A stretch of 64,000 nucleotides of DNA from a virus, in the IMG/VR virus record IMGVR_UViG_3300033121_000578, positions 7,845 through 71,844 of that record. One strand, written 5' to 3'. The notes beneath the pieces were generated by a model. That model searched no databases. It was not told the origin of the DNA and saw only the letters and a program-made list of their open reading frames with translations. The translations under genes were made by a program, and so were the position numbers. Each line of letters opens with the position of its first letter. The first letter of the stretch is position 1. Positions 15,855 to 46,382 of this stretch are shown here, piece by piece.

Positions 15855-16157
15855 ATGTTAGTAGCAGTCGATACAGTAAAAGATTTAGGGAAGGTAAAGA
15901 AGGGAAGTCCTTACTCCTTCCAGTTTGCATTAAGAAACAACGGACAGAACGAAGTTATAATTGACAGAATATCAGTAGGTTGTGGGTCCTGTACAAAGGC
16001 ATCCACCTCTAAGGTAAAGCTTGGTCCGGGAGATACATCAAATATAGATGTAATCTTTACTCCGGGTTCTACTGGTACCCAACAAAAATTCGTGAATGTG
16101 CAGTGGAATAGGGATAATCTCTTGAAGCTGACATTTACAGCAGATTCATATGAGTAA
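15855..16157 (+). CDS. DUF1573-like small protein (a Bacteroidetes-type domain)
   Basis: about 100 aa with NNGQNEVIIDRISVGCGSC, resembling the DUF1573 CGC signature (from memory). Confidence 0.45.
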   Translation: MLVAVDTVKDLGKVKKGSPYSFQFALRNNGQNEVIIDRISVGCGSCTKASTSKVKLGPGDTSNIDVIFTPGSTGTQQKFVNVQWNRDNLLKLTFTADSYE

Positions 16158-25071: not shown

Positions 25072-26775
25072 ATGTTTATCCCCGGAACAGATAACAGACA
25101 AGGATTAGGGACCTTAGGTCACCCCGGTATATTTATCGGCCAATCCCGCTCATTGGGTATCAAAAATCATATTGATATCCCTTACGTAACAGCTCTTGCT
25201 CCAGAAAAGCCACTAGATTTTGGTGTACTGGACCTATGGGCTCTTAGACAGAGAACTGATTCTCCATTACTAACCCTTGCTATAGATAACGCCCAAGTTA
25301 TTTATACAGATGCTGACTACTACACATTTGAGTTACCATCTGCTGCAGATTCGACAATGCGTCTTATTTCTGCCGGATTGGATAAGGACAAGCAAGGTAT
25401 GGACGATGAAGAAATTCCTTTTGTAGTATCCTGCAGAGGTTTGGCTCCCGGCTCTATCTTCAAGTTTGACCTGACTTCCCGTATCTCATTTACCGTAGTT
25501 GACCGTCCTATCGAGCAACTTGGTGAGCACTACAAGGTATGGGCAGTTCTTAACACTAACTCTCAAGTTAAGTGGGTTACTAAAGCAGAATTCCAACCTC
25601 AGCGTCAGATTATAAAGCTGGCCGACATCAGAGGTCTTGATTTCTCCTCAAACAAATCAACTTGGTCAATCAGTGGAGTTCCTTCACTTGCTAAGTATAA
25701 GAACTATCTGTCAAATGTAATGCTTCAGCAGTCTTACCGTGTTACTTCTGGTGCTGTAGAGTATCTGAATACACACACTCGTATTGACGCTAGACAAATC
25801 CAAATGATGGAACAAACTGTTCTTCAGTTCTATCAAGTTAAAGGTATTGCTGACAACAAGGTTATCGACCTTAGAAATCCTGAGAGCTATAAGATGTATT
25901 TCGAAAGACTTATGGAAGAAAAGGCCAAAGGTAACGGTGAAGCAGCTATGGTTAACCTTCTTGATAGTGTTGCCATCAACATGATGCAGAAGCAGAACAA
26001 TGACCTGATGATTTGGAGTGACCAAATCGATATCCTGAGAGATGGTTATGACACTCAGCGTCTTGTTCCCGGTGTATGGTTCCAGCTTGATTTGGCAGGT
26101 TATAAGCACAGCTACTCAATTGATACCTTTACTCTGGATACTCTTACCGATGCCATTAAGGACTTCGAGTTCGGTAAAGTACCTCTGAGAGAGTCTATCT
26201 CTGACAATATGTATGTAATCCGTACAGGTCGTGGTGGTAGTGAGCTTATCTACAAAGCCTTTATGAAGAGTGGATTCCAAATCCCTGCACAACTTCAGAA
26301 CGCAGAATTCGGATTCATTACTGGTTCTAACGCAGCTAACCTTACTTACAATGCAGCACGCTTTGTTAAGTATCAGATTCCTAACATTGGTTATCTGTCG
26401 GTTGAGTGGGAACCCGGTTTTGACCCAGTGAAGGCTGACGAGTTTGTTAACCCAATTCTTCCCGGTGGTTATCGTCTTTCTTCTTACACAATGTTGATTG
26501 AAGATTACAACACTTCTCGTGATAACATCGCAATCATCCGTAAGAATGGCCATAAGATGAGAATGATTGTGGAAGCTGGTGACCAAACACACCCACTTCT
26601 CCGTTCTACTACAAACGTGAATGGTATGAATATCTCTGTTTCTCAGGCTTCTGATGAACTGAGTGGATATCAGGTTAAGTTTGTGAGCAAGGCTGACACA
26701 GCAATTGTAAAAGACCCAACTAAGTTGCTGAAACTTGTTCCAAAGAACCCACGTACAGGAATTGCTGCATTGTAA
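25072..26775 (+). CDS. probable major capsid protein
   Basis: 567-aa ORF after the scaffold-like gene; stem-loop 26790-26810 downstream. Confidence 0.5.
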   Translation: MFIPGTDNRQGLGTLGHPGIFIGQSRSLGIKNHIDIPYVTALAPEKPLDFGVLDLWALRQRTDSPLLTLAIDNAQVIYTDADYYTFELPSAADSTMRLISAGLDKDKQGMDDEEIPFVVSCRGLAPGSIFKFDLTSRISFTVVDRPIEQLGEHYKVWAVLNTNSQVKWVTKAEFQPQRQIIKLADIRGLDFSSNKSTWSISGVPSLAKYKNYLSNVMLQQSYRVTSGAVEYLNTHTRIDARQIQMMEQTVLQFYQVKGIADNKVIDLRNPESYKMYFERLMEEKAKGNGEAAMVNLLDSVAINMMQKQNNDLMIWSDQIDILRDGYDTQRLVPGVWFQLDLAGYKHSYSIDTFTLDTLTDAIKDFEFGKVPLRESISDNMYVIRTGRGGSELIYKAFMKSGFQIPAQLQNAEFGFITGSNAANLTYNAARFVKYQIPNIGYLSVEWEPGFDPVKADEFVNPILPGGYRLSSYTMLIEDYNTSRDNIAIIRKNGHKMRMIVEAGDQTHPLLRSTTNVNGMNISVSQASDELSGYQVKFVSKADTAIVKDPTKLLKLVPKNPRTGIAAL

Positions 26776-28558: not shown

Positions 28559-30601
28559 ATGGAAAATTTTAGCTATCATGTACCCTTTTATGTGGTAAAT
28601 GGAGGAATAGCAACTTCTGGTCATTCTGCAGACCTTACCCCCGGAAAGGTTGGTCTGTTTGACCGTAACACCTTCTCTGTAGCAACAGCTATTGGAAATG
28701 GTAAAGAACTCTTCTTTGCTCAAGGAGCAAACGGTGGTCTTGATTGGTATGGTGCGGAAGTACGCAACAGCCACAAGTCTCCTTTCTTCTTCGCAAAGGA
28801 CGTAGAGGGTATGTACCTTTCTAAGCCTCAGAGACTTCAGAACGAAGAGTGGGTAATTGGATACAACGGTTCTCCGTCTTCCAAGGGCCTGAAATTTAAT
28901 ACTGGAGAAGCTCTCCGTATTAAGTTCTACTTCCACGGTCAACCCGTATATCGTTTCTTTAACGGTCCTAAGGAGTATGTAGTATCCTACACTCCAAAGG
29001 AAGATTGTACTGAACCATGTGCAGGAGGTGACTGTCCTGACCCAATCGTGGACTGTGAAGTTCATACAAAGTCACTTATCGACCTTATTAATAACCACAC
29101 AGAACTTCGTAAGTTTGGTGTAACTGCAAAGTATGTAAGCAGCACTTACAGCACTGGTACTCCAAACATGACAAAGTATTGTCTGACTCTTTGTGACAAT
29201 GGTGATGCACAAGCTCTTAACGCTGTTAAGGCTCAAGCTCCTGTTGGCGTAAATGTAGTAAGAACAAGCCGTGTAGGTAGCCAGTCTACTTACCAGTTCT
29301 GCCAAGCTGATGGTGCTACTGCTCCTTCTGCTTTCCAGCAAAGCGGTTCTGTTCTACAGGCAGTGTGTGAAGATTGTCCAGCAGACAGCTACCTTGTACC
29401 TGCTAAGGATGTATTCCTTATCAAGCGTCCAATCGTAGGTGGTGAGAATTTCTCAACTGCTGCAACAAGAGATGCATATGCCAACACCGTATGGCAAGAT
29501 TATGCAACTCAGGAGTCTATAACTACTTCTACATCAACTACTTCTACAACTACAGCTGCTGGTACAGCTAACCCTGATGCAGTATTTATTGCTCAGGATG
29601 GTGCCGTAGCACTTGTGAAAGTTAAGTTTGTTGCTGGAACAGTTCTTGACCCCGCAATTGGAACCGATATCATCGAGTTCTCTCATACAGAACCTGCAGT
29701 TTGTGTGTTCGACACACCTGTAGCTGTAGCTTGGGAAACTTGTGGTACTGGTATCAGTTCAACTAGAAAACTTCGTATCAAGAATATCAGCCGTCCTGAT
29801 TGTGATGCTGATGGTGATAGACTTACAGATATTGAAGCAGCTCTTGCTGGAGTAGTTGGTATCAAACTGAATACCCTTACTCTTGAAGCTGGTAGTGCAT
29901 GTAAAGATGACTACACAGTTGAACAAGATTCTGTAGACTGTCTTGACGAAGGATGTCTGACAAGCAACGTAACATTCACTTATGACGATTTACCTGCATT
30001 CGAGAACGAAAGCTGGGTAGTTGTACCTCCTACACACGTAGACGAGCCAACAAGAAAGTGTGGTATCCGTGTAACAGCTGGTTACATTGACCCTAAATTT
30101 GGTGAGTGCTCATTCAATCCTATGGATTACTATGAGACCGAGCCAATTAAGATGGAAGTTTCTCTTCTTGGTGAGGATGATGACAGATGTGATGTTGCAC
30201 TGTGGCCAACCGTGTCTCAAACAAGAATTGGTAGAGTTTCACGTCAAAGCGGAGAGTACGTGGTAAGAGAGCTTATCATGAAGACTGATGCTTACCTGAA
30301 GCATGTACGCCAGTTCAGCCTTGAGCCAAGAATGAGAGAAGCATTTGATATGAACCTTCTTGGAAGTGTTGATAAGAATGCCTTCTACAACCTGTACTAT
30401 GTACGCTTTAAGGCTTCATATGGACATTCATTCAGAAAGAACGAGCAAGAAACATTCACAGCAGTATTTGCCTTCAAGGAAGGAGACCCTGCAGCAGCTC
30501 AATTTGAGAGCAATGTACTGGATGTTCTTACCGCTAAATCTGGTGTTCATCTTCATGTGAACGAAGCAAATATAGGTGGTAGCAGCGGAATGCAATCCTA
30601 A
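28559..30601 (+). CDS. hypothetical Cys-rich structural protein with Thr/Ser linker (680 aa)
   Basis: long ORF; TTSTSTTSTTTAAGT linker and several CxxC. Confidence 0.55.
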   Translation: MENFSYHVPFYVVNGGIATSGHSADLTPGKVGLFDRNTFSVATAIGNGKELFFAQGANGGLDWYGAEVRNSHKSPFFFAKDVEGMYLSKPQRLQNEEWVIGYNGSPSSKGLKFNTGEALRIKFYFHGQPVYRFFNGPKEYVVSYTPKEDCTEPCAGGDCPDPIVDCEVHTKSLIDLINNHTELRKFGVTAKYVSSTYSTGTPNMTKYCLTLCDNGDAQALNAVKAQAPVGVNVVRTSRVGSQSTYQFCQADGATAPSAFQQSGSVLQAVCEDCPADSYLVPAKDVFLIKRPIVGGENFSTAATRDAYANTVWQDYATQESITTSTSTTSTTTAAGTANPDAVFIAQDGAVALVKVKFVAGTVLDPAIGTDIIEFSHTEPAVCVFDTPVAVAWETCGTGISSTRKLRIKNISRPDCDADGDRLTDIEAALAGVVGIKLNTLTLEAGSACKDDYTVEQDSVDCLDEGCLTSNVTFTYDDLPAFENESWVVVPPTHVDEPTRKCGIRVTAGYIDPKFGECSFNPMDYYETEPIKMEVSLLGEDDDRCDVALWPTVSQTRIGRVSRQSGEYVVRELIMKTDAYLKHVRQFSLEPRMREAFDMNLLGSVDKNAFYNLYYVRFKASYGHSFRKNEQETFTAVFAFKEGDPAAAQFESNVLDVLTAKSGVHLHVNEANIGGSSGMQS

Positions 30602-36249: not shown

Positions 36250-37311
36250 ATGGCTTGTCCTGAAGTAAATCCTTGCGACCCTTGTAATGAATATGATAAC
36301 TGTGGTTGTCTTAATCCTACTACATTTGGGTGCGTAACAACAAATAAAGTAAGAGAGTGCCTTGGTACAGAATCAGGAGAGGATGGTGAAAGTGTCCTTG
36401 ATAAGATAGAGGAAAAGGTATGTAATATTGGAAAAGTTATCATTGATGATAATGATACTTGTCCTGAAGGTCTTTTTGATAAACTAGAAGCTGGTCTTAA
36501 TATATCTTTAACACAATCAGGTACTGGATGTGATAAAAAGATAAGAATTGATGCTACTGAAGGTGGTGTTCCAGTAGACGTAAATGTAAAAATATCTACA
36601 GATGACACAACAAGTGGATATCTATATGATAAAATACAAACAGGAACATATCTCACAAAATCAATAGTATCACCTGCGGGTAATGAAAAGCTAAGATTAG
36701 ATGTAGTACCATCTACTTTGATTTCATCTGATTTAGGAAATCAACTTGGTTTAGGTGGAGATGGAAAATTAGTTACCCTATATACTGCCCCTGATGGTAG
36801 TGAGACGCAGTTAATTGCTGGTACAGGTACCACTGTTAGTGGTTCTGGTACATTAGTTGACCCATATATAGTATCAACTAATGCATCTATTCAGGTAGCT
36901 CGTCCATGTTTTGATGGTATTTGGAGAAATATTACACTTGTAGCAACAGGTAATCCTAGTGTTACATACATGTCTGGTGCTCCTCAATATCGTTATCGTT
37001 TTGACGGAACTATTGAGTTCAGAGGCTCTGCTACATATCAAGTAGCTTTTGGTAATAATGTATCTGCATCCAGAAAGTTCACAATTACAGCTGGTAATAT
37101 ACCAACTACATGCTTAACTCTTGGTGAACAAGCTGGTACAATTGATTTAAAATCAATAACTTATATAGAAAGTGCAGGTCAGATGTACAACTATATCATA
37201 AGAAAAGCTACTCAAAATATAGTTCTGGAATTCCAGTCTTCATTTACTGCAGCTACAAATAAAACAATAGTTGTAAACTTTGAAGGAGCTGTGAGTCATC
37301 CCCTAATATAA
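36250..37311 (+). CDS. putative tail fibre protein with Cys-rich N-terminus (353 aa)
   Basis: MACPEVNPCDPCNEYDNCGC then Gly/Thr-rich repeats. Confidence 0.55.
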   Translation: MACPEVNPCDPCNEYDNCGCLNPTTFGCVTTNKVRECLGTESGEDGESVLDKIEEKVCNIGKVIIDDNDTCPEGLFDKLEAGLNISLTQSGTGCDKKIRIDATEGGVPVDVNVKISTDDTTSGYLYDKIQTGTYLTKSIVSPAGNEKLRLDVVPSTLISSDLGNQLGLGGDGKLVTLYTAPDGSETQLIAGTGTTVSGSGTLVDPYIVSTNASIQVARPCFDGIWRNITLVATGNPSVTYMSGAPQYRYRFDGTIEFRGSATYQVAFGNNVSASRKFTITAGNIPTTCLTLGEQAGTIDLKSITYIESAGQMYNYIIRKATQNIVLEFQSSFTAATNKTIVVNFEGAVSHPLI

Positions 37312-37361
37312 TTTGGACTTCAAATATAAAACCTCGGTTGTTGGTTCTCCGAGAAAGTTTG

Positions 37362-37394
37362 GGAGGGTATGTCTATACTCTCCTTTTATTTTTA
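37362..37394 (+). terminator. rho-independent terminator after the fibre cluster
   Basis: GGAGGGTAT(gtct)ATACTCTCC then TTTTATTTTT. Confidence 0.6.
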
Positions 37395-37608: not shown

Positions 37609-37633
37609 AACAGTCAGAGGTATAAATATACAA

Positions 37634-37664
37634 CCCCATCCCAAAAAGGTGGGGTTTTCTTTTT
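37634..37664 (+). terminator. rho-independent terminator
   Basis: CCCCATCC(caaaaa)GGTGGGG then TTTTCTTTTT. Confidence 0.55.
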
Positions 37665-37757: not shown

Positions 37758-38240
37758 ATGAAAACCTTAATACTATGTAGCCATTGCGGAAATTCTTTTG
37801 AAGCAGAAAACAAATATATTAATTATAGTAAGAAAAAAGGATGGAATTTATATTGCTCGGAGAATTGTAAATTTGCAGGAAAGAAAAAATCTGAGGTATG
37901 TAATTGTCATACCTGTGGAAAATCTGTGATTAAAACACCATCCTCTAAAAAGAGGTCAATAAGTGGAAAGGTTTTCTGCAGTAGAAAATGTTCTACAATA
38001 TTTACTAATTCTGAATATAAAACAGGAGAAAGGCATCCTAATTATAATAATGGATTATCTTCTTATAGACAAAGAAAATTAAGAAGTGGCAATAACAAGT
38101 GCGAAGATTGTGGAAACTCTGATATAAGAGTATTAGAGGTTCACCATAGAGATGAAAATAGAAAGAATAACTCTCTTGAAAATTTAGCAATTCTTTGTGC
38201 TAATTGTCACAGAATAAGACATTTCGAGAATGTGGTGTAA
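37758..38240 (+). CDS. HNH homing endonuclease with N-terminal CxxC zinc-finger repeats
   Basis: C-terminal EVHHRDENRKNNSLENLAILCANCHRIRH is an HNH motif; multiple CxxC pairs. Confidence 0.75.
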   Translation: MKTLILCSHCGNSFEAENKYINYSKKKGWNLYCSENCKFAGKKKSEVCNCHTCGKSVIKTPSSKKRSISGKVFCSRKCSTIFTNSEYKTGERHPNYNNGLSSYRQRKLRSGNNKCEDCGNSDIRVLEVHHRDENRKNNSLENLAILCANCHRIRHFENVV

Positions 38241-38294
38241 TGGTAGCACTCTAAGTTTGGGACTTAGGAGAGCCGTTCGAATCGGACATTTTCG
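38226..38294 (+). tRNA. tRNA-Pro(TGG)-like with defective T-arm (possible pseudogene)
   Basis: acceptor GAGAATG/CATTTTC (7 bp, one GU), D-arm GTGT-AATGGTA-GCAC, anticodon arm CTAAG-TTTGGGA-CTTAG; the T-arm is only CCG-TTCGAAT-CGG; overlaps the HNH ORF 3' end. Confidence 0.4.
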
Positions 38295-38298
38295 ACTG

Positions 38299-38323
38299 AG
38301 TGGTTCGAGTCCAGTCCACTCGA
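38299..38323 (+). pseudogene. tRNA 3' part (T-arm AGTGG-TTCGAGT-CCAGT plus acceptor CCACTCG, discriminator A) matching the 5' half at 37665
   Basis: acceptor strand is the exact reverse complement of CGAGTGG at 37665-37671; the T-arm resembles bacterial tRNA-Asn. Confidence 0.55.
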
Positions 38324-38328
38324 CACAA

Positions 38329-38402
38329 GCCTGAGTAGCTTTAACTGGTAGAGCAGCTGCCTTGTAAGCAGACGGTTGCAGGTTCGAGTCCTGTCTTAGG
38401 CT
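38329..38402 (+). tRNA. tRNA-Thr(TGT)
   Basis: hand-folded cloverleaf: acceptor GCCTGAG/CTTAGGC, anticodon loop CTTGTAA, T-arm GCAGG-TTCGAGT-CCTGT. Confidence 0.8.
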
Positions 38403-38407
38403 CATAT

Positions 38408-38434
38408 GTCACCTTGGCTGAGTGGTCAAAGGCA
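38408..38434 (+). pseudogene. tRNA 5' fragment of class-II (Ser-like) type
   Basis: GTCACCT-TG-GCTGAGTGGTCAAAGGC resembles a tRNA-Ser acceptor plus D-arm, then breaks off into the HNH promoter. Confidence 0.4.
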
Positions 38435-38441
38435 AAATAAA

Positions 38442-38473
38442 TTTGGCAATTTGAACCTTTTGTTGTATATTTG
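38442..38473 (+). promoter_or_regulatory. Bacteroidetes-type promoter for the second HNH gene (-33 TTTG, -7 TATATTTG)
   Basis: aaataaaTTTGgcaatttgaaccttttgttgTAtaTTTGtat. Confidence 0.55.
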
Positions 38474-38490
38474 TATTATAATACAAAATT

Positions 38491-39084
38491 ATGAACAAGG
38501 GTTTAAAAAGTAAAGTTATTGAGTTATATTCACAAGGAAAATCATATAATCAAATTTCAGAGGAATTAGGTTGTAGTAAAGGAACAATATCTTTTCATGT
38601 TTCTTCTATGGCAGAAGAAAAGATACACAAGGTTCGAAGAGAAAAGAAAAAACAAATAGAAACCATAATTAATGAAGTTAAAGAGTCTAAAGGTTTAACT
38701 TTAAAAGACTTTGAAGACATCTACAGAATGACTCTTCCTTTAAAAGACTTCTTAAAACTGAGAAATGAGTTATTTGAGAAAAAATATATTACCAAGGAAC
38801 TAAGTGTTGCAGATTATCATAAAAATAGAAGAAGACAAATAAAAAAAGAATTGGTTGACATTAAAGGTGGAAAATGTCAAGTGTGTGGATATAATAAATG
38901 TCTTAGGTCATTAGAGTTTCATCATCTAGACCCTTTACAAAAAGATTTTACAATATCTGGAAATCTCAAAAGAATTAAGAGAGAAAAAGTAATAAAAGAG
39001 CTAGAAAAATGCATATTAGTATGTTCTAACTGTCATGGAGAAATACATGATGGATTAATAAGAGTAGATACCAGAGAGGATTAA
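38491..39084 (+). CDS. HNH homing endonuclease with N-terminal HTH
   Basis: CQVCGYNKCLRSLEFHHLDPLQKDFTISGNLKRI...CSNCHGEIH is an HNH motif; N-terminal YSQGKSYNQISEELGCSKGTISFHV is HTH-like. Confidence 0.75.
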   Translation: MNKGLKSKVIELYSQGKSYNQISEELGCSKGTISFHVSSMAEEKIHKVRREKKKQIETIINEVKESKGLTLKDFEDIYRMTLPLKDFLKLRNELFEKKYITKELSVADYHKNRRRQIKKELVDIKGGKCQVCGYNKCLRSLEFHHLDPLQKDFTISGNLKRIKREKVIKELEKCILVCSNCHGEIHDGLIRVDTRED

Positions 39085-39137
39085 TGGCTCAGACTGCAAA
39101 TCTGTTGATTTCGGGAGTTCGAATCTCCCTCTACTCT
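39062..39137 (+). tRNA. tRNA-Cys(GCA)
   Basis: acceptor GAGTAGA/TCTACTC perfect, anticodon loop CTGCAAA, T-arm GGGAG-TTCGAAT-CTCCC; atypical D-arm; the 5' 23 nt overlap the HNH ORF end. Confidence 0.6.
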
Positions 39138-39143
39138 CATAAT

Positions 39144-39216
39144 GGTAAGTTAGCAAAGATGGTCTATGCGGAGGACTGAAAATCCTTAGATAGTGGTTCG
39201 ATACCACTACTTACCA
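39144..39216 (+). tRNA. tRNA-Phe(GAA)
   Basis: acceptor GGTAAGT/ACTTACC, anticodon loop CTGAAAA, T-arm AGTGG-TTCGATA-CCACT. Confidence 0.8.
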
Positions 39217-39222
39217 CAACAT

Positions 39223-39295
39223 ACGGGTGCTCAAGGCTGGCGTGATAAACCGTCTCCAAAACGGTGACTTGGGGAATCGTTCTCTCCCACCCGTG
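39223..39295 (+). tRNA. tRNA-Trp(CCA)
   Basis: acceptor ACGGGTG/CACCCGT, anticodon arm ACCGT-CTCCAAA-ACGGT; weak D-stem and unusual T-loop ATCGTTC. Confidence 0.6.
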
Positions 39296-39300
39296 CATAT

Positions 39301-39372
39301 TTCCAAGTAGGATAATGGTATTCCGTCAGATTTTGGCTCTGAAAATTCTAGGTTCGACCCCTAGCTTGGAAA
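39301..39372 (+). tRNA. tRNA-Gln(TTG)
   Basis: acceptor TTCCAAG/CTTGGAA, anticodon arm TCAGA-TTTTGGC-TCTGA, T-arm CTAGG-TTCGACC-CCTAG. Confidence 0.8.
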
Positions 39373-39374
39373 CT

Positions 39375-39449
39375 GGTGTCTATAGCTTAACTGGATAGAG
39401 CCCCTGATTGTGGCTCAGGGTTGTGCCGATTCGAATTCGGTTAGACACC
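39375..39449 (+). tRNA. tRNA-His(GTG) with G-1:C73
   Basis: 8-bp acceptor GGTGTCTA/TAGACACC including the His-specific G-1; anticodon loop TTGTGGC. Confidence 0.85.
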
Positions 39450-39453
39450 CACT

Positions 39454-39527
39454 GCTCCCATAGCTTAACTGGATAAAGCACATGGCTACGGACCATGAGA
39501 CTGAGGGCTCGAATCCTTCTGGGAGTA
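39454..39527 (+). tRNA. tRNA-Arg(ACG)
   Basis: D-arm GCTT-AACTGGATA-AAGC, anticodon arm CATGG-CTACGGA-CCATG, T-arm GAGGG-CTCGAAT-CCTTC. Confidence 0.8.
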
Positions 39528-39562
39528 CATTAACAATTCATTAGGATATATATGTCGTATAT

Positions 39563-39835
39563 TTGTGTATGCAATTCAATCCAAACTCAAACGAATATCT
39601 TAGTAAATTTGAACCTAAGACATGGGATGAAATAAAAGAACAACCATCTCATGATAATATATGGGTGAAAGACCCAGAAAAGCTTCTTAAGCTTGAGAAT
39701 ATGACGGGAATATGGTCTCAACTTCAAGAGCCGTCTAGGCAGATAACCCTAATGACAGGTAGGGGTGGAATGGAGCTCTTTCAGAAAGCAATGAAAGAAA
39801 TGTTTGAAAAAGAGCAAGAAAAATTTGGAAATTAG
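39563..39835 (+). CDS. hypothetical protein (90 aa)
   Basis: ORF between tRNA clusters. Confidence 0.45.
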   Translation: MCMQFNPNSNEYLSKFEPKTWDEIKEQPSHDNIWVKDPEKLLKLENMTGIWSQLQEPSRQITLMTGRGGMELFQKAMKEMFEKEQEKFGN

Positions 39836-39855
39836 AAAATTAGTTCGTATATTTG
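39823..39855 (+). promoter_or_regulatory. Bacteroidetes-type promoter (-33 TTTG, -7 TATATTTG) with no ORF downstream
   Basis: aaaaaTTTGgaaattagaaaattagttcgTAtaTTTGtattcg. Confidence 0.5.
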
Positions 39856-39861
39856 TATTCG

Positions 39862-40036
39862 TAAAAACATTAAACAGCAGATGTACTTATTTTATATGAT
39901 AGCGGATAATGGAGATGTGAGAGGCATTGAGAAAAATGGCTCCGGGTTTCCTATGTCTGTTGTCTAAGTAGAAACAAATACCAACTGATTAGAAGCCTGG
40001 AGCCTAGCCACAAGCTACTCCGGGTTTTTTCGTTTT
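39862..40036 (+). ncRNA. candidate ~170-nt noncoding transcript (promoter to terminator, no significant ORF)
   Basis: bounded by the promoter at 39823-39855 and the hairpin CCTGGAG(N16)CTCCGGG plus TTTTTT at 39996-40036; contains direct repeat CTCCGGGTTT at 39940 and 40017. Confidence 0.35.
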
Positions 40037-40037
40037 A

Positions 40038-40111
40038 GCCCTTGTAGCTTGAAGGCCAAGCAATAGACTTTTAATCTATGGTTCTCAGTTCGATTCTGAG
40101 CAGGGGTACCA
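40038..40111 (+). tRNA. tRNA-Lys(TTT), CCA encoded
   Basis: anticodon arm ATAGA-CTTTTAA-TCTAT, T-arm CTCAG-TTCGATT-CTGAG, acceptor GCCCTTG/CAGGGGT then ACCA. Confidence 0.8.
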
Positions 40112-40115
40112 AAAT

Positions 40116-40145
40116 GCTTTTGTAGCTCATGTGGAAGCAGCTATC
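40116..40145 (+). pseudogene. tRNA 5'-half-like fragment (acceptor plus D-arm GCTC-ATGTGGAA-GC)
   Basis: GCTTTTG-TA-GCTCATGTGGAAGCAGC; no T-arm; overlaps the start of tRNA-Lys(CTT). Confidence 0.3.
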
Positions 40146-40220
40146 CCAGTCTTAGCAAAATTTGGTGTTGCTCCTGACTCTTAATCAGGTAAAAAGTGAG
40201 TTCGATTCTCACAGGCTGGA
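40146..40220 (+). tRNA. tRNA-Lys(CTT)
   Basis: D-arm GCAA-AATTTGGTG-TTGC, anticodon arm CCTGA-CTCTTAA-TCAGG, T-arm GTGAG-TTCGATT-CTCAC. Confidence 0.8.
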
Positions 40221-40235
40221 CATAATAAATTATAT

Positions 40236-40308
40236 TGAGGGATGCAGCAGTGGTAGCTGGCAGGTCTCATAAGCCTCGCAGTCGTGGGTTCGAGTCCCAC
40301 TCCCTCAA
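40236..40308 (+). tRNA. tRNA-Met(CAT), elongator or Ile2-type
   Basis: acceptor TGAGGGA/TCCCTCA, D-arm CAGC-AGTGGTA-GCTG, anticodon loop CTCATAA, T-arm GTGGG-TTCGAGT-CCCAC. Confidence 0.7.
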
Positions 40309-40313
40309 CAAAA

Positions 40314-40345
40314 TTTGGTCATTATTTATAATCTCCATACATTTG
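40314..40345 (+). promoter_or_regulatory. Bacteroidetes-type promoter (-33 TTTG, -7 TACATTTG) giving a near-leaderless start at 40349
   Basis: aaaaTTTGgtcattatttataatctccaTAcaTTTGtatATG. Confidence 0.5.
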
Positions 40346-40348
40346 TAT

Positions 40349-40813
40349 ATGGAAAGATATTTTCGGACAGAGGATGGTAAGATGGTAAATGTCATAGAAC
40401 ACACTTTGGAACAAATAGAAAAGTGGCCAAATCTTAAAATCTATATAGCAACTGATAGTCAGGATTCAGGAAAAGAATCAAAGTATGCTACAGTAGTTGT
40501 ATATAGATATGGAACAAGAGGGGCACACTATATTTACTTCAAGGATGCAGTTCCAAGAAGAGATATGTTTACTCGTCTTTATGATGAAGCTGTTCGTACA
40601 ATAGAGACTGCTCAAATGATTGATAGTGAGATACCTGTATCATTTGCAGCTCTTGAGTTTGACTATAATACTTTACCTAAGTGGGCAAGTAATAAGCTTG
40701 TATCATCAATAAGAGGATGGGTAAAGGGATTAAATTATAACTTTGTATTTAAGAATACAGGAAATGACATCATGATAGCTGCAAAGGCAGCAGACCATGT
40801 ATGTAGAAGGTAA
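40349..40813 (+). CDS. hypothetical protein, possibly RNase H-like fold nuclease (154 aa)
   Basis: start at ATG 40349 (the listed ORF's N-terminus is translated tRNA); KIYIATDSQDS and IMIAAKAADH are loosely RuvC/RNase H-like. Confidence 0.45.
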   Translation: MERYFRTEDGKMVNVIEHTLEQIEKWPNLKIYIATDSQDSGKESKYATVVVYRYGTRGAHYIYFKDAVPRRDMFTRLYDEAVRTIETAQMIDSEIPVSFAALEFDYNTLPKWASNKLVSSIRGWVKGLNYNFVFKNTGNDIMIAAKAADHVCRR

Positions 40814-40885
40814 GCAGTAGTAGTGCTAATGGTAACACGCCAGCCTTCCACGCTGGATTTGAGAGTTCGAGTCTCTTCTACTGCT
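40814..40885 (+). tRNA. tRNA-Gly(TCC)
   Basis: acceptor GCAGTAG/CTACTGC, anticodon arm CCAGC-CTTCCAC-GCTGG, T-arm GAGAG-TTCGAGT-CTCTT. Confidence 0.8.
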
Positions 40886-41003
40886 CATAAGCCCGAAGTA
40901 CAAGGGAACGAAGATAGAGTAACTCCTCTGGAAACATGAAACTCTCTAAATCGTAGGTTAGCACAGTTTGAAGGTCTGGGGATATTGTTTAAAACCTTCA
41001 ATT

Positions 41004-41076
41004 GCAGCAATAGCTCAATTGGTAGAGCGTGACCTTGCCAAGGTTAAGGTTGCAGGTTCGAGACCTGTTTGCTGCT
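41004..41076 (+). tRNA. tRNA-Gly(GCC)
   Basis: acceptor GCAGCAA/TTGCTGC, D-arm GCTC-AATTGGTA-GAGC, anticodon loop TTGCCAA. Confidence 0.8.
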
Positions 41077-41081
41077 CATAT

Positions 41082-41155
41082 GCTCCTGTGGACAAGTTGG
41101 TTAAGTCACTTGCCTTTCACGCAAGTCATCGTGGGTTCGAGCCCCATCAGGAGTA
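41082..41155 (+). tRNA. tRNA-Glu(TTC)
   Basis: anticodon arm CTTGC-CTTTCAC-GCAAG, T-arm GTGGG-TTCGAGC-CCCAT. Confidence 0.8.
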
Positions 41156-41160
41156 CATAA

Positions 41161-41235
41161 GGAACCATGGTCGAATTGGTTACGATTCCACCCTGTCACG
41201 GTGCGAGATTGCGGGTTCGAGTCCCGTTGGTTCCG
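41161..41235 (+). tRNA. tRNA-Asp(GTC)
   Basis: acceptor GGAACCA/TGGTTCC, anticodon loop CTGTCAC, T-arm GCGGG-TTCGAGT-CCCGT. Confidence 0.75.
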
Positions 41236-41290
41236 CTAGGAGAGCACGTTTTGTACGTCTGAGGCTGAAAGAAGCAATCCCTCTCCATCC

Positions 41291-41362
41291 ACTCTTATAG
41301 CTCAATGGTAGAGCACATGCCTTATACGCATTAGGTTTCCAGTTCGAATCTGGATGAGAGTA
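41291..41362 (+). tRNA. tRNA-Ile(TAT)
   Basis: D-arm GCTC-AATGGTA-GAGC, anticodon loop CTTATAC (U33, TAT, A37), T-arm TCCAG-TTCGAAT-CTGGA, acceptor ACTCTTA/TGAGAGT. Confidence 0.7.
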
Positions 41363-41424
41363 CAGGAGATAACCTCTGGTATACAAGTGGCCACCCTGTG
41401 TCTATGGGTCAAGTTATCTCAATT

Positions 41425-41497
41425 GCTCATATAACTCAATTGGTAGAGTACTACTCCGATACGGTAGAAGTTATAGGTTCGAGACCTATTATGAGCA
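41425..41497 (+). tRNA. tRNA-Ile(GAT)
   Basis: acceptor GCTCATA/TATGAGC perfect, D-arm ACTC-AATTGGTA-GAGT, anticodon loop CCGATAC (C33 atypical), T-arm ATAGG-TTCGAGA-CCTAT. Confidence 0.6.
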
Positions 41498-41498
41498 C

Positions 41499-41969
41499 AT
41501 GAAACCATTTAAAGAAGCATTAGAAGAGGCAACAATCTATGAAGATTTGATTGCAAACTGGTTAGAATCCAGAGGAAATAAGATACTTTTTCGTTCAAAA
41601 GAGAAGGAGTTTGACATACAATATCTAACAGTAGATGGTAAAACAAAAACTATTGAAGTAAAATATGACAAGCTATCTTCTGAAACAGGTAATGTAGCAA
41701 TTGAATTTAAAAGAAAAAACAAGAAATCTGAGGAATTTGAAGCAACTGGAATATCAGTTACAACTGCAAATTATTGGGTACACATAGTAGATAAATTTGA
41801 TGTCTATATTATAGATAGAGAGATACTACTAATGCAGATTCAAAGTAATGGATACCCACAGGTATTTGGTGGAGATGATATGAGAACTAAAATGCATCTT
41901 ATAGATAAACAGGAATTTGCAGAAATGTGCAAAGTATATAAGAATGCTTTATACGGGGGATTAGTATAG
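41499..41969 (+). CDS. hypothetical protein (156 aa)
   Basis: ORF starting 2 nt after tRNA-Ile; its 3' end overlaps tRNA-Ala. Confidence 0.5.
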   Translation: MKPFKEALEEATIYEDLIANWLESRGNKILFRSKEKEFDIQYLTVDGKTKTIEVKYDKLSSETGNVAIEFKRKNKKSEEFEATGISVTTANYWVHIVDKFDVYIIDREILLMQIQSNGYPQVFGGDDMRTKMHLIDKQEFAEMCKVYKNALYGGLV

Positions 41970-42027
41970 ATGGCAAAAATACCTGATTTGCATTCAGGAG
42001 TCACCAGTTCGATGCTGGTATCCTCCA
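41955..42027 (+). tRNA. tRNA-Ala(TGC) with G3:U70
   Basis: acceptor GGGGGAT/ATCCTCC carrying the Ala identity G3:U70 wobble; anticodon arm CCTGA-TTTGCAT-TCAGG, T-arm ACCAG-TTCGATG-CTGGT. Confidence 0.8.
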
Positions 42028-42083
42028 CATTTATTTGGTAATATGGAAATTTTGTAGTATATTGTACTATAAATAATACTACC

Positions 42084-42302
42084 ATGTTACAAGAAAAAGA
42101 TTTATATTGGCTTGCTGGTCTATTAGAAGGTGAAGGTTATTTCCAACCAAAGAGGAAATCAAGTCCTGTAATTGCACTTGAGATTACTGATGAAGATATA
42201 ATACAAAGAGTTTGCAAACTTATAGGTACAACTTATTGTAAACCAAAGATTAGGAAACAAACTCATAGACAATCCTTTAAAACTACTTTAAATTGTATTT
42301 AA
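42084..42302 (+). pseudogene. truncated LAGLIDADG homing endonuclease (72-aa N-terminal fragment)
   Basis: LYWLAGLLEGEGYF motif, but the ORF is too short for a functional single-motif enzyme. Confidence 0.5.
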
Positions 42303-42320
42303 TCCTTAATTAATAGTAAT

Positions 42321-43235
42321 ATGACACAAGAACAAATAGAAAAGGAATTTAAAAAAATTAAAAGATTAATTTGTTGCTCTGCTGCTACACCACTTAGATT
42401 TGGAGTATTAGGAGAAGATGATACTGGAATTGAAGCTAGAGCTTTTACTACTAACGATGATTTTCAGCTTTTACTTGATGGCGTAGATGGTACAAAAAAT
42501 ATTTTTTTAAGAAATAGTTATGGTGTAGGTAGTCAATTTTCTGAAGTATCGTTACAATCATCTTCATTTATAGCAAGAGGGCAAGAATCAGTAACAGGAA
42601 CAGGTCAGTTTAGTTTATCAAATTTGACTATGAGTATGAGTTCTGATAATCAAGCTTTTTATCAAGCTGAAAATGGTTATTTAATGTTGCAATTAGGTTG
42701 GCAAGATAAGCTTTTTCAAATTGGCGATGTTGATGCAAACTATAATGGAACAAAAATAACAATTGATGATGCTAATTCAATAGTAGCTGTAACTAATATT
42801 CCTTTAGAAATTCCATCATCAGATGCAGATAGGCTTTTATTTCAAAGTGATGGTGACACACAAATAAAAGCTACTACAATTTCTGATTTATTAGGATATA
42901 AAGTATATACAGCATTATTAACACAAAGAGGAACTGCTGCACCAACAGCAGTGATATTAAAAAATACACTAGGTGGTATTCCTACATGGACAAGAGAAGG
43001 ACTTGGAAAATATAGAGCAACACTAGCAAATACATTTAATGTAAGTAAAACAGCAGTGCTAATAACAGCATCAACAGAGAATTTACAGACTGATGAAGTG
43101 GCCATAGGAGTTGCGAGATTTGACAATGGTACAAATGACGACTATATAGAAATAGTCACAGGAGAACCGTCATTCTGGGGACAAGTGGATAATGCATTAT
43201 CAAAAACGACAATAGAAATAAGAGTATATAATTAA
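42321..43235 (+). CDS. hypothetical protein, possibly fibre/receptor-binding-like (304 aa)
   Basis: long ORF; terminator GGAGC(cttgt)GCTCC plus TTTTATTTTT at 43316-43342. Confidence 0.55.
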   Translation: MTQEQIEKEFKKIKRLICCSAATPLRFGVLGEDDTGIEARAFTTNDDFQLLLDGVDGTKNIFLRNSYGVGSQFSEVSLQSSSFIARGQESVTGTGQFSLSNLTMSMSSDNQAFYQAENGYLMLQLGWQDKLFQIGDVDANYNGTKITIDDANSIVAVTNIPLEIPSSDADRLLFQSDGDTQIKATTISDLLGYKVYTALLTQRGTAAPTAVILKNTLGGIPTWTREGLGKYRATLANTFNVSKTAVLITASTENLQTDEVAIGVARFDNGTNDDYIEIVTGEPSFWGQVDNALSKTTIEIRVYN

Positions 43236-43370
43236 AAATTAAAATAAAATCAAAATGAAAAAAGAAAGTTGGCGATTCCGACCTCCCCAACACATACTGT
43301 TGATTTTCAATTATTAGGAGCCTTGTGCTCCTTTTATTTTTCGCTGTTAACATAGTTTTAACTTTAATAA

Positions 43371-43403
43371 TTTGGAAAACCCTTCCCGGTAATAGTATAT
43401 TTG
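43371..43403 (+). promoter_or_regulatory. Bacteroidetes-type promoter (-33 TTTG, -7 TATATTTG)
   Basis: taaTTTGgaaaacccttcccggtaatagTAtaTTTGctat. Confidence 0.5.
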
Positions 43404-43432
43404 CTATATCAATAACAAATTAAAATTATTAC

Positions 43433-43591
43433 ATGAAACGTCAGATTGAACAACACCTTTTAGCTAATCCTTCATTTTTCAAATGGGGTGAAACAAGACT
43501 TGCAAATAAATATAATTGCTCAGTTAAGACAATTAGAAGTATTGTCAAAAAACTTGAGCCTCAAAGACAAAATTACTTGCGAAGCCTCTAA
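43433..43591 (+). CDS. small HTH-like protein (52 aa)
   Basis: unlisted ORF MKRQIEQHLLANPSFFKWGETRLANKYNCSVKTIRSIVKKLEPQRQNYLRSL with a promoter upstream and terminator GAAGGG(N12)CCCTTC-TTTTTT at 43607-43640. Confidence 0.3.
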   Translation: MKRQIEQHLLANPSFFKWGETRLANKYNCSVKTIRSIVKKLEPQRQNYLRSL

Positions 43592-43654
43592 TTTTGTTAT
43601 CTTTAAGAAGGGTAGGTAATACTGCCCTTCTTTTTTATTAACTAAAATCAAGGT

Positions 43655-44491
43655 ATGATAACAAGAGCAAAAGTAAAAAATTTTCTACTCTCTAAAAGAG
43701 GATATCTTAAAAAATCTCCACTTAAGGTTGCTGAGGCACTTTGGAAAAATGAACAATCATCTCACTCAAAAACTCACCAAGAATTAAAAAAAGAACTTGA
43801 CATCATTGCTGATGTACAGTATACTTTGCGTGAGGCAGAAAGATATATTATATCTAAAGAAGAACAAGATTTACTTGACACATTTAACGATATTCAGAAA
43901 AAGAACAATCAACCAAAACGTAAGTTATTCTTTGATATAGAAGTATCTCCAAATCTAGTATTCTCTTGGGGAGTAGGTAATAAAATAAACATATCTCATG
44001 AATCAATTGTACAAGAAAGAGCTATTATTTGTATATGTTGGAAATGGGCAGGAGAAGATAAAGTACATTCTCTAAGATGGAATAATGGTGATGATGGAGA
44101 TATGTTAACAAAATTTGCATCAATAATAGATTCAGCAGATGAAGTTATTGCCCAAAATGGAGATAATTTTGATATCAAATGGTTAAGAACCAGATGTTTA
44201 TATCACAATATCCCAATATCTTCCAAGTTTAATAGCATTGATACATTAAAAATGGCTCGTTCTAATTTTAGATTTAATGCTAATAGACTAGATTATATGG
44301 GTAGATTTTTAGGACATGGTGGTAAAATTCATACAGAATACGATATGTGGAAGAAAATTGTCCTCGAAAACGATAAAAAGTCAATGGAATTGATGATATC
44401 TTATTGTAAAGAGGACGTGAATTTACTTGAAAAAGTCTATAACTCATTACAAGAATATAGCCCTGTAAAAAGATTTAAATACAAACCTTGA
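43655..44491 (+). CDS. DEDDy 3'-5' exonuclease (family-B-polymerase-type Exo I/II/III motifs), stand-alone
   Basis: Exo I FFDIEVSP, Exo II IAQNGDNFDIKWL, Exo III YCKEDVNLLEKVY; no polymerase motifs in this or neighbouring ORFs. Confidence 0.7.
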   Translation: MITRAKVKNFLLSKRGYLKKSPLKVAEALWKNEQSSHSKTHQELKKELDIIADVQYTLREAERYIISKEEQDLLDTFNDIQKKNNQPKRKLFFDIEVSPNLVFSWGVGNKINISHESIVQERAIICICWKWAGEDKVHSLRWNNGDDGDMLTKFASIIDSADEVIAQNGDNFDIKWLRTRCLYHNIPISSKFNSIDTLKMARSNFRFNANRLDYMGRFLGHGGKIHTEYDMWKKIVLENDKKSMELMISYCKEDVNLLEKVYNSLQEYSPVKRFKYKP

Positions 44492-44510
44492 TTAAGCTCA
44501 ACATGTGAAC

Positions 44511-44540
44511 AGCCCCCTATATCTATAGGGGGCTTTTTTA
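44511..44540 (+). terminator. rho-independent terminator
   Basis: AGCCCCCTATA(tc)TATAGGGGGCT perfect 11-bp stem then TTTTTT. Confidence 0.7.
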
Positions 44541-44627
44541 ATTTATAAGGTTAATTTTTCTATGCCGTTAAAAATCTGTATATTGTAGTAAGAATAGTTA
44601 TAGTGTCCAATAAAATTAACTTGTAGA

Positions 44628-45194
44628 GTGAAACCAACCAAAGCAGGTATATATCTAATAATCAGCCCCTCAGGAGGTCATTATATAGGCCAAAGTTGGG
44701 ATTTAGATAAGAGAGTAAGGCACTACAGAAATGCAGATTGTAAGTGTCAAAGGAAACTGTACTATTCTATAAAGAAGTATGGATGGAATACTCATGAGTT
44801 CAAAGTTGTACATTCGTTACCAAATGATATATCACAAAATGTGATGAATGATTATGAAACTTTCTACTATAATTCTTATAAAGAGTTGAATTTCAATATG
44901 TTAAACCTTCGTGAGGCTGGAAGTAGGGGGAAGAATTCGGAGGAAACTTTAGAGAAGATGAGAAAGACTCACAAGGAGAATTATAGAACAGGGAAAAGAA
45001 AAGGTGCTGAGGAAAGAAAGATTATACAATTTGATTTGGAGGGAAATTTCATAAGAGAGTGGAACTCTCAGAAAGAAGCAGCAGAATACATTAACATTGA
45101 CAGAACCTGCATTCACTATGCAATAAAAGGGAAGACCAGTCATGCTGGAGGGTTTCTGTGGAAAAAGAAGAACCATGAAGCCTACATACAGTAA
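44628..45194 (+). CDS. GIY-YIG homing endonuclease with C-terminal NUMOD/HTH-like DNA-binding region
   Basis: GIYLIISPSGGHYIGQS...R..HY is a GIY-YIG motif; C-terminal IREWNSQKEAAEYINIDRTCIHYAIKG; GTG start. Confidence 0.8.
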   Translation: MKPTKAGIYLIISPSGGHYIGQSWDLDKRVRHYRNADCKCQRKLYYSIKKYGWNTHEFKVVHSLPNDISQNVMNDYETFYYNSYKELNFNMLNLREAGSRGKNSEETLEKMRKTHKENYRTGKRKGAEERKIIQFDLEGNFIREWNSQKEAAEYINIDRTCIHYAIKGKTSHAGGFLWKKKNHEAYIQ

Positions 45195-45708
45195 TGATAG
45201 AAGTGCACCAAGAATGAGGAAAGCCGAGTTCTCTAAGTCTGTGATAACCAATGAGTTATTTAAGAAATTCAAGAAAGAATTCCCTGAGTACAAAGATTTG
45301 ACTTGGAAGGAGTTCTATCAGTGTTGGTTGAATATTGCAAAGAAGATAAGAGAACAAGTTGTACAAAATCCACTTGGAGTTAAATTGGGCAGCTATCTAG
45401 GAGAGATAAAGCTTCAGTACATCCCCTATAAGTTTAAGGCTGTAAATCATTGGGAAAGTATTAAGGTTGGAGAAAAGATACCATATCTGAATATAGAGAC
45501 AAAGGGTAAGGTTCCCCGTATAAAATGGGAAAGAAGACAGGCAGTTAAGTTCAATAAGATTTTGCAGTTCTATGCATTTGACGAAACAAGAGAAGTTAAA
45601 AAGCTAGCTGCCGAATATATAAGGAACGATAATGCTGATAAAATAAGAACTGCCCGTGTTACTATAGGAGGACACAGTGTATGGAGACAAAAATTTAAAA
45701 AGCAATGA
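45175..45708 (+). CDS. hypothetical protein (178 aa from ATG 45175)
   Basis: ORF. Confidence 0.5.
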   Translation: MKPTYSNDRSAPRMRKAEFSKSVITNELFKKFKKEFPEYKDLTWKEFYQCWLNIAKKIREQVVQNPLGVKLGSYLGEIKLQYIPYKFKAVNHWESIKVGEKIPYLNIETKGKVPRIKWERRQAVKFNKILQFYAFDETREVKKLAAEYIRNDNADKIRTARVTIGGHSVWRQKFKKQ

Positions 45709-46382
45709 GCACTAAACGTCAAGTCATAGAATCCCTTAGAAATAAGCTAAGAGAGAGAAATGCTGATAGCAATTATAGTAATAAATTTCTCTATAATAGC
45801 CTAATGGAGCATGCCAAATGGTTAATAAAGAGAGAAATAAGTGCTGGAAGAATATACAGAAATGTATCTTTCTTCCAGACTCTCATGTGTCAGGATGTAA
45901 TTGAGACATCTATAATCGACCCATGCTGTCCCATAAAGACAAACTGTAAGATATATAGAACAAAGAATCCAATACCTGAAACTTGGATAGATGAAAGTGG
46001 ACCAATTATACGAGATATAACTTCGATTGACTACTCTACAAGTTTTGATTTGGTTTCATTTAGCACTTGGTCCAATAAAAAGAATGACCCATACGATAGA
46101 AAGGCTAAAGCTATATATGCATTTTATGCAAATGGATATATCTGGTTTCCAGAACATAATCCTCATAAAATTAATATAACAGCATTCTTTACAGATGATG
46201 TGTCTGACAAAAATGACTGTTCTGAGAAAAAGGAGTGTACTAGATATTTAGACACAAAGTTCCTCATTCCTGATTGGATTGAAGCAGAGATGTATGCAAA
46301 AGCTGTAGAACTGTTAGCAGGGGTTAGTAAGAGGATGCAGGAAGATGAGCAGATAGATAAGAATCCTACAAGAAAAAGTTAA
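45705..46382 (+). CDS. hypothetical protein (225 aa)
   Basis: ORF. Confidence 0.55.
   Translation: MSTKRQVIESLRNKLRERNADSNYSNKFLYNSLMEHAKWLIKREISAGRIYRNVSFFQTLMCQDVIETSIIDPCCPIKTNCKIYRTKNPIPETWIDESGPIIRDITSIDYSTSFDLVSFSTWSNKKNDPYDRKAKAIYAFYANGYIWFPEHNPHKINITAFFTDDVSDKNDCSEKKECTRYLDTKFLIPDWIEAEMYAKAVELLAGVSKRMQEDEQIDKNPTRKS

Follow-up and report, generated by a model that had tools for sequence, protein, structure and literature searches.

A transfer RNA gene with the anticodon UAU in the tRNA array of a crAss-like phage: a probable isoleucine tRNA that would read AUA without lysidine

The window analysed here is a stretch of 64,000 nucleotides of the IMG/VR virus record IMGVR_UViG_3300033121_000578 (positions 7,845 to 71,844), from a large, distant crAss-like phage (Crassvirales). 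Within an array of 17 transfer RNA (tRNA) genes it carries a tRNA gene with the anticodon UAU (41291-41362), which most likely specifies a lysidine-independent decoder of AUA, one of the codons for isoleucine, in a general set of tRNAs supplied by the phage. The fuller reading, a functional tRNA that is charged with isoleucine, decodes AUA directly through U34 and belongs to an array supplementing the host pool, is considered probable. Because U34 is encoded in the gene, lysidine would not be needed and the tRNA would be independent of TilS, unlike the bacterial and T4-type tRNA-Ile2(CAU). The direct observations concern the gene, its anticodon, its phage context, its conservation and covariation, the codon counts and the prevalence of UAU tRNAs in viral sequences.

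ARAGORN, applied to the 64-kb window, called a tRNA-Ile(tat) at 41291-41363, and Rfam gave a full-length match to RF00005 (model positions 1-71 of 71) over 41291-41362 with 68.2 bits and E = 8.6e-14, the top score among the 17 tRNAs of the window and above the gathering score of 29 bits. Direct reading agrees with both programs, and the tRNA proposed in the initial annotation is real. Its acceptor stem (ACTCTTA/TGAGAGT) has seven pairs, one of them U-G; the D arm is GCTC-AATGGTA-GAGC, with the stem GCTC/GAGC; the anticodon stem is CATGC/GCATT, with C27 mismatched to U43; the variable loop is AGGTT and the T arm TCCAG-TTCGAAT-CTGGA. The seven-nucleotide anticodon loop (41321-41327) consists of C32 U33 U34 A35 U36 A37 C38, with the anticodon at 41323-41325, A37 at 41326 and C38 at 41327. 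The discriminator A73 (41362) is followed by the 3′ trailer CAGG, and CCA is not encoded. The description of an otherwise canonical cloverleaf holds for all four helices and fails for pair 27-43, which is unformed in the window copy and in all five related copies; this mismatch is not special, being present in 27% of viral UAU tRNAs and 14% of other tRNAs. Folded thermodynamically by itself, the sequence gives a partial cloverleaf in which the acceptor, D and T stems form while the anticodon arm takes up other pairs, a weak result (z = -1.83).

The gene appears to be selected for as a functional tRNA, because its stems have changed in a compensatory manner while the anticodon loop has stayed the same. 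When six distinct UAU copies were scored against the cloverleaf written from the window sequence, 95% of cells were paired and both sides had changed in 16 of 21 stem pairs; none of 500 shuffles attained the observed pairing and compensatory values, and pairing fell to 28-44% when the 3′ partners were slid. The loop CUUAUA is invariant across these six divergent copies, and the anticodon UAU is kept in relatives though the body of the tRNA is only 78-82% identical. An exact search of IMG/VR with the 20-nt anticodon arm returned six further contigs (L001-L006) from at least two other array types; their UAU tRNAs have positions 8-48 in common with the window copy and differ in the acceptor and T stems.

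Three closer relatives were found in IMG/VR through a structural open reading frame (ORF) that adjoins the array (36250-37311): L008, which is 95-99.9% identical to the window in nucleotides, and L009 (on a contig of 130 kb) and L010 (147 kb), each with about 70% identity. In L008 and L010 the tRNA(UAU) occupies the syntenic slot between tRNA-Asp and tRNA-Ile(GAU), both isoleucine genes following tRNA-Asp; the order UAU then GAU is preserved in L006 as well, and the L009 array lacks the pair within the 21 kb examined. A megablast search with the array region found no match among 50,697 phage records, so that no deposited phage in this set is similar at the DNA level. Comparison of the tRNA alone with the same records by blastn was set aside as uninformative, since it returned only generic similarity (78-79%) to Thr and "Pyl"- or TERM-labelled tRNAs of Acinetobacter phages.

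The isoleucine assignment rests on A35, U36, A37 (the t6A site) and A73, all of which are present (41324-41326, 41362). A35, U36 and A73 are strong isoleucine determinants, and NAU anticodons are read only by the isoleucyl-tRNA synthetase (IleRS) and the methionyl-tRNA synthetase (MetRS), of which MetRS requires C34 (PMC9976931). The minor determinants C4-G69 and U12-A23 are also present; position 4-69 is not conserved in the group and is G4-C69 in the UAU copies of L001-L005. In a nearest-neighbour comparison with the anticodon removed, the closest sequences were all other UAU tRNAs; beyond these, the body was equally near to tRNA-Ile(GAU) (0.74), Arg(UCU), Lys(CUU) and Asn (all 0.73-0.75). 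Nothing in this comparison points to a recent origin from a neighbouring gene through a mutated anticodon.

In the proposed mechanism, the 3′ CCA would be added and the host IleRS would then charge the tRNA with isoleucine; U34, in its presumed modification state, would read AUA directly. The gene would be transcribed with the rest of the 17-gene array among the structural genes, and the UAU and GAU tRNAs together would cover all three isoleucine codons from the phage's own set. Phage mRNAs with ATA for about half of their isoleucines might benefit. The role would be general supplementation or replacement of the tRNA pool, topping up a slow, single-gene host decoder rather than standing in for a missing one, and the advantage over a T4-type CAU gene may be that a burst of new transcripts needs no action by TilS.

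Several points weigh against this reading. The wobble base G34 or lysidine required by the IleRS of Escherichia coli is absent (T at 41323), and that enzyme charges a UAU variant 360-fold worse than the LAU form (PMC3575796). The E. coli minor determinants A38 and C29-G41 are likewise absent, with C38 and U29-A41 in their place, and an unmodified U34 could read AUG as well. The nearly identical phages of the window and L008 differ by seven tRNAs, which makes single tRNAs look dispensable. In the major head protein gene, no more than 3 of the 43 isoleucine codons are ATA (7%; ATC 51%); as the capsid gene is the most highly expressed, AUA seems still to be a poor codon despite the tRNA. Lastly, ATA use does not track the presence of a UAU tRNA among related loci: the ATA share of isoleucine codons is 37% in L009, which has no UAU tRNA in the locus, 35% in L010, 41% in L008 and 20% in L002, which has one.

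How far the charging defect of the E. coli enzyme would apply depends on the synthetase. The substitution Trp905Arg in E. coli IleRS largely cures the poor charging of UAU (PMC3575796), and eukaryote-type IleRS reads a carbonyl that is common to G, I, U and pseudouridine (PMC3575796, PMC11685878). To recognise U34, an IleRS would have Arg or Lys at the Trp905 position or a C-terminal domain of the eukaryote type. The literature searched neither settles which type of IleRS Bacteroidota possess nor confirms that it is the eukaryote type; no IleRS gene lies within the window.

A possible but doubtful alternative is that the array substitutes for host tRNAs lost to degradation or cleavage in the course of infection, with UAU being favoured as TilS-free and as having an anticodon loop unlike that of the host tRNA-Ile2, the supposed target of a nuclease or of a shut-off process. 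This overlaps with the preferred reading and fits the near-complete isotype coverage of the syntenic arrays in L008 (24 tRNAs) and L010 (26; that of L009 has 12), as well as the uncoupling of tRNA content from codon use. Related ideas have been published for other phages (PMC10264068), among them a vibriophage study in so far as PMC13191261 recounts it. A further point in its favour comes from a scan of 185,579 species-representative genomes with the pattern CATGCCTNATACGCATT (16 specified bases): no tRNA in these genomes has the anticodon arm of the window gene with any base at position 34, and all 84 of 84 pattern matches were chance occurrences outside tRNAs. However, no nuclease, defence or shut-off gene was linked to the array in the window, and the literature searched yielded no anticodon nuclease directed at tRNA-Ile; the idea is purely inferential.

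Also rather unlikely is the specific compensation of a host that reads AUA poorly or not at all, the tRNA closing the gap for an ATA-rich phage; the initial annotation had suggested that the phage may supply AUA decoding that its host lacks. Codon usage is partly in its favour. Over 48 long ORFs ATA makes up 473 of 1076 isoleucine codons. In the plus-strand genes (9897-60378) it is the commonest isoleucine codon, with 476 of 999 (48%; 32.5 per 1000 codons) at a third-position G+C fraction (GC3) of 0.27, versus 34 of 198 (17%; GC3 0.46) in a block of small minus-strand genes (143-9581; Fisher p = 1.5e-16), many of which use ATA for only 0-14% of their isoleucines. Beyond the window, this block continues in the Logan contig L215, where small genes that lack ATA are mixed with ATA-rich ones; the two codon regimes could represent early and late genes, or a recent acquisition. 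ATA is scarce also in ORF 28559-30601 (12%, with ATC preferred), as it is in the head protein gene. Third-position G+C at four-fold sites is like that of the neighbours both in this ORF and in the head protein gene (0.18), so that the avoidance of ATA in the two is specific to the codon, a form of selection that is met in highly expressed genes. The heavy use of ATA reported initially is borne out by the plus-strand genes; "very AT-rich" is an overstatement, as the G+C content is 34-40% across 8-64 kb and reaches 42-43% in the stretch of 1-8 kb.

The codons that are most enriched in the plus-strand genes end in A (CCA 3.6-fold, GGA 3.2-fold, ATA 2.25-fold), and the array is rich in U34 tRNAs, with a match for each of these three (UGG, UCC and UAU, respectively), in line with the general supply set preferred above. 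As a stand-in for the host, 8-kb chromosomal pieces of 11 Bacteroidota genomes, sampled by chance in the genome scan, were counted. ATA makes up 11-42% of isoleucine codons across these pieces and 27-33% (22-26 per 1000) in the four from Bacteroidales. The phage is higher than the latter, as compensation would have it, but the excess over these stand-ins is modest, about 1.3-1.5 fold. Prophages of Lactobacillus curvatus with AUA-reading tRNAs likewise exceed their hosts in ATA use (PMC10688831). Against compensation, Bacteroidota plainly decode AUA, since they use ATA at such frequencies, and the host would be adequate in this respect. The mismatch for AGA is larger (29.5 per 1000 in the phage, 2.5-9 in the Bacteroidota pieces) and goes uncovered in the window, from which tRNA-Arg(UCU) is absent though L008 keeps one. 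The UAU tRNA is one of a near-complete set, ATA use is untied to it in L009 and L002, and the capsid gene avoids the codon; the claim of a decoding capacity missing from the host is only partly borne out.

The array is a region of fast turnover, as judged from a replaced segment, absent tRNAs and HNH ORFs. The phage is otherwise 96-99.9% identical to L008, and on either side of the replaced segment the identity is 99.8% (40232-41236) and 99.9% (43273-44638); between them the UAU tRNA is 78% identical and 41364-43272 cannot be aligned by blastn. The nearly identical flanks of a diverged or unalignable segment indicate that 41237-43272 was swapped in from a more distant relative; its counterpart in L008 is 15295-17798. 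The replaced segment carries the UAU tRNA allele, the GAU tRNA, ORF 41499-41969, tRNA-Ala, a LAGLIDADG remnant and ORF 42321-43235, and both alleles retain UAU. The seven L008 tRNAs that the window lacks are Val, Arg(UCU), Asn, two Leu, Ser and Tyr; the LAGLIDADG remnant and the unrelated 304-aa ORF stand where these would be. Array content turns over far faster than codon use.

Such turnover raises the question of whether the UAU gene is a passenger of little or no function, brought in by endonuclease-driven recombination of the array and drifting. The recombination breakpoint falls exactly at this tRNA, the array contains HNH ORFs and the LAGLIDADG remnant, seven tRNAs have been lost relative to L008, and the adjoining GAU tRNA has an odd C33. 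Nevertheless this explanation is very improbable, given that the UAU tRNA has the best score in the window, that its stems are maintained by compensatory changes with an invariant anticodon loop in divergent copies, and that the window and L008 alleles both keep UAU. Hardly credible is the notion that the tRNA carries another amino acid, or reads mainly AUG and so creates a deliberate methionine-to-isoleucine ambiguity or serves a regulatory role: its body is about as near to Arg(UCU), Lys(CUU) and Asn tRNAs as to Ile(GAU), and U34, C38 and U29-A41 deviate from the E. coli identity set, but A35, U36 and A73 fit only isoleucine or methionine, MetRS needs C34 (PMC9976931), the nearest sequences are all UAU tRNAs, a related phage UAU tRNA is labelled Ile by tRNAscan-SE, and reading by the standard code leaves the ORFs open, with no sign of recoding.

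The preferred reading, a lysidine-independent AUA decoder in a general supply set, has precedents among cellular tRNAs. The tRNA-Ile2(UAU) of Mycoplasma mobile and the tRNA-Ile1(UAU) of tilS suppressors of Bacillus subtilis resemble the window tRNA in having UAU and A37, and they decode AUA unmodified, without lysidine (PMC3575796, PMC3919564). Those tRNAs are cellular and have a co-adapted IleRS (Arg for Trp905), and the M. mobile ribosome rejects AUG, whereas the window tRNA is viral and may have an Ile2 CAU tRNA alongside. In Lactobacillus plantarum and Lactobacillus casei, a redundant tRNA-Ile(UAU) coexists with tRNA-Ile2(CAU) and the lysidine system (PMC3575796), and one of ten isoleucine tRNAs of L. 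curvatus prophages uses UAU (PMC10688831); these are cases from Firmicutes with Arg at the wobble-reading site of IleRS, in contrast with a crAss-like phage that presumably infects Bacteroidota.

Among phages, the tRNA-Ile of T4 and T4-like phages is an AUA decoder in a cluster with homing endonuclease genes, like the window array (PMC1524935). The T4 gene has the anticodon CAT, with C34 converted to lysidine by the host TilS (PMC1524935), whereas the window tRNA has U34 in the gene; it differs from the T4-type tRNA-Ile2 in having the anticodon TAT and U-A at pair 5-68, where the TilS determinants are C4-G69 and C5-G68. The crAss-like phages with large genomes described by Yutin et al. (2021, PMC7886860) have multi-tRNA arrays, and the relatives of 130-147 kb are comparable in size to their Epsilon and Zeta groups; that study centres on suppressor tRNAs and the reassignment of stop codons, whereas the window has no suppressor tRNA and its ORFs follow the standard code. 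A TAT tRNA annotated as tRNA-Ile with tRNAscan-SE is present in an isolated phage, Blautia phage Montmirail (ON453898, 18649-18721). Montmirail infects a Firmicute, has a genome of 46 kb and carries only two tRNAs in the stretch examined; its TAT tRNA is unrelated in sequence to that of the window beyond the generic scaffold.

UAU tRNAs are common and diverse in viral contigs. The initial annotation held that a genuine tRNA-Ile(UAU) is rare, and this is true of cells, where it is known from nine tilS-less species and a few redundant cases (Taniguchi et al., PMC3575796); a review also regards UAU as rare in cells and states that phage tRNAs lack the anticodons that are absent from bacteria (PMC8007984). 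It is not true of viruses. A scan of IMG/VR with the pattern GAGC-N6-CTTATA-N15-GTTCGA gave at least 120 matches; among the matches listed, 116 of 124 loci were confirmed by ARAGORN to hold a tat tRNA, with 107 unique UAU sequences, and roughly half of the loci had no other tRNA in the stretch examined. With the earlier loci included, at least 113 unique viral UAU sequences form 66 clusters at 80% identity. A rescan of IMG/VR that was neutral with respect to the anticodon (N at position 34) returned C in 92, G in 19 and A in 1, plus 11 TAT loci, so that in this sample UAU accounts for about 9% of the NAU tRNAs on the scanned scaffold and occurs roughly 0.6 times as often as GAU. Among these contigs are giant-virus bins, in which UAU is the normal eukaryotic anticodon. 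As regards UAU, the IMG/VR sample does not bear out the statement of the review.

The literature searches brought up no systematic treatment of phage tRNA-Ile(UAU). Reviews treat UAU as missing from bacteria and their phages, and the IMG/VR sample contrasts with this; the class-level pattern is a more interesting lead than the window gene itself, which is one more tRNA in a crAss-like array with, as its likeliest role, the textbook one of translating a heavily used A-ending codon. If phages routinely bypass TilS, it becomes testable which host IleRS types charge U34 tRNAs and how misreading of AUG is tolerated. A bolder proposal, speculative and quite unlikely, is that the tRNAs(UAU) of viruses form a class of lysidine-independent AUA decoders that is widespread and largely specific to viruses, and that in phages such as this one AUA-rich genes could be translated only after expression of the array. 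Such gating would act on a sense codon as a soft counterpart of the stop-codon recoding switch of crAss-like phages, and the ATA-poor, GC3-rich minus-strand block would then be a tRNA-independent early set.

Both companion tRNAs named in the initial annotation, GAU and CAU, were recovered by ARAGORN and Rfam (table). The paired U1-A72 and an anticodon stem without three G-C pairs show that the CAU tRNA is not an initiator. Its A3-U70 is Ile2-like under the rule of Silva et al., by which this pair excludes Met and fMet in bacteria (PMC1635315); C4-G69 and C5-G68, which are frequent in Ile2, are lacking, and the tRNA may be either Met or Ile2. If the CAU tRNA is Ile2, the phage has two AUA decoders and no elongator tRNA-Met. 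The same rule can be applied to 112 unique viral CAU tRNAs (L219-L327) from the anticodon-neutral sample: C3-G70 is found in only 17, 15 are initiator-like, and the remaining 77, with G-C, A-U or U-A at 3-70, are assigned to Ile2. Unless the bacterial rule does not carry over to phages, most of their CAU tRNAs are Ile2, and many phage annotations of "tRNA-Met" may really be AUA decoders. In L010, a CAU tRNA at 14458-14534 with a C1xA72 mismatch is initiator-like and adjoins a second CAU tRNA with G3-C70; this array may encode its own initiator tRNA.

Table. Features of the window that bear on the tRNA(UAU) gene
Feature	Position	Strand	Evidence and remarks
tRNA with anticodon UAU	41291-41362	+	ARAGORN, Rfam RF00005, direct reading, covariation
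tRNA-Ile(GAU), reads AUU and AUC	41425-41498	+	ARAGORN, Rfam (63.8 bits)
tRNA(CAU)	40236-40309	+	ARAGORN, Rfam; gene identical in L008
Array of 17 tRNA genes	38225-42028	+ (all)	ARAGORN, Rfam; interleaved with endonuclease-type ORFs
Content of the array			Pro, Thr, Cys, Phe, Gln, His, Arg(ACG), Lys (two), CAU, Gly (two), Glu, Asp, Ile(UAU), Ile(GAU), Ala
Segment replaced relative to L008	41237-43272	+	blastn
HNH-type endonuclease ORF	37758-38240	+	Pfam HNH, E = 1.3e-6
HNH-type endonuclease ORF	38491-39084	+	Pfam HNH, E = 2.6e-4
RNaseH_like ORF in the array	40376-40813	+	Pfam PF04308, E = 1.4e-11
Truncated LAGLIDADG remnant	42087-42299	+	Translation; followed by an unrelated 304-aa ORF (42321-43235)
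Two terminator-like hairpins	37361-37384 and 37632-37656	+	Close by, on the upstream side of the array
Two terminator-like hairpins	43316-43332 and 43605-43632	+	On the array's downstream side
TerL	18659-20941	+	PHROGs, phrog_6681, 1.3e-68
Portal	20944-23739	+	PHROGs, phrog_6547, 1.4e-70
Major head protein	25072-26775	+	Weak PHROGs match
crAss tail ring protein 2	45705-46382	+	Pfam PF25702 CrAss_Ring_2, E = 1.7e-15

The array lies between head and tail genes: TerL, portal and capsid genes are upstream and the gene of crAss tail ring protein 2 is downstream, in keeping with the initial view that the tRNA is phage-encoded. By tblastn, TerL shares 24-27% identity with the terminases of crAss-like phages from Bacteroides and Flavobacterium and of uncultured gut phages, and this affiliation makes Bacteroidota the presumable host. 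The ORFs are long and uninterrupted in the standard code (up to 1534 aa) and stop codons are matched by none of the 17 anticodons that ARAGORN called in the window, so recoding is not indicated.

Terminator-like sites number 12, with 3.1 expected. Such hairpins flank the array and no such site on the plus strand lies between 37.7 and 43.3 kb, which suggests that the array is co-transcribed as one unit, embedded ORFs included. Matches to sigma-70-type promoters were at chance level (28 versus 24 expected). Homologues of the RNaseH_like ORF, 34% identical, occur within the otherwise unrelated UAU-bearing arrays of L001 (6687-7067), L002 (3937-4317) and L003 (7031-7411); a role in tRNA processing or in mobility of the array is conceivable. 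The GAU tRNA has C33 (loop CCGATAC) instead of the near-universal U33, and an A10-U25 pair in its D stem; U33 is present in the GAU tRNAs of L008, L010 and L006. The last of these contigs, which shares the UAU anticodon arm, also contains a tmRNA-like gene (2803-3182, ARAGORN) with a 28-residue tag peptide.

The region of 1-9.6 kb was considered as a possible host flank on account of its G+C content and ATA use, and this was rejected: it consists of tightly packed ORFs of 60-290 aa with almost no family matches, mixed with ATA-rich genes. An AAA ATPase encoded there (1570-2439) had no relatives in viral contigs; an exact-protein look-up found it in the 9-kb Logan contig L215, and the extension of the small-gene block in that contig supports, without proving, that the block is phage rather than host. 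Upstream of TerL, a second terminase-like ORF (16150-17925, 591 aa; phrog_36964, 8e-30) has an exonuclease-like N-terminal region.

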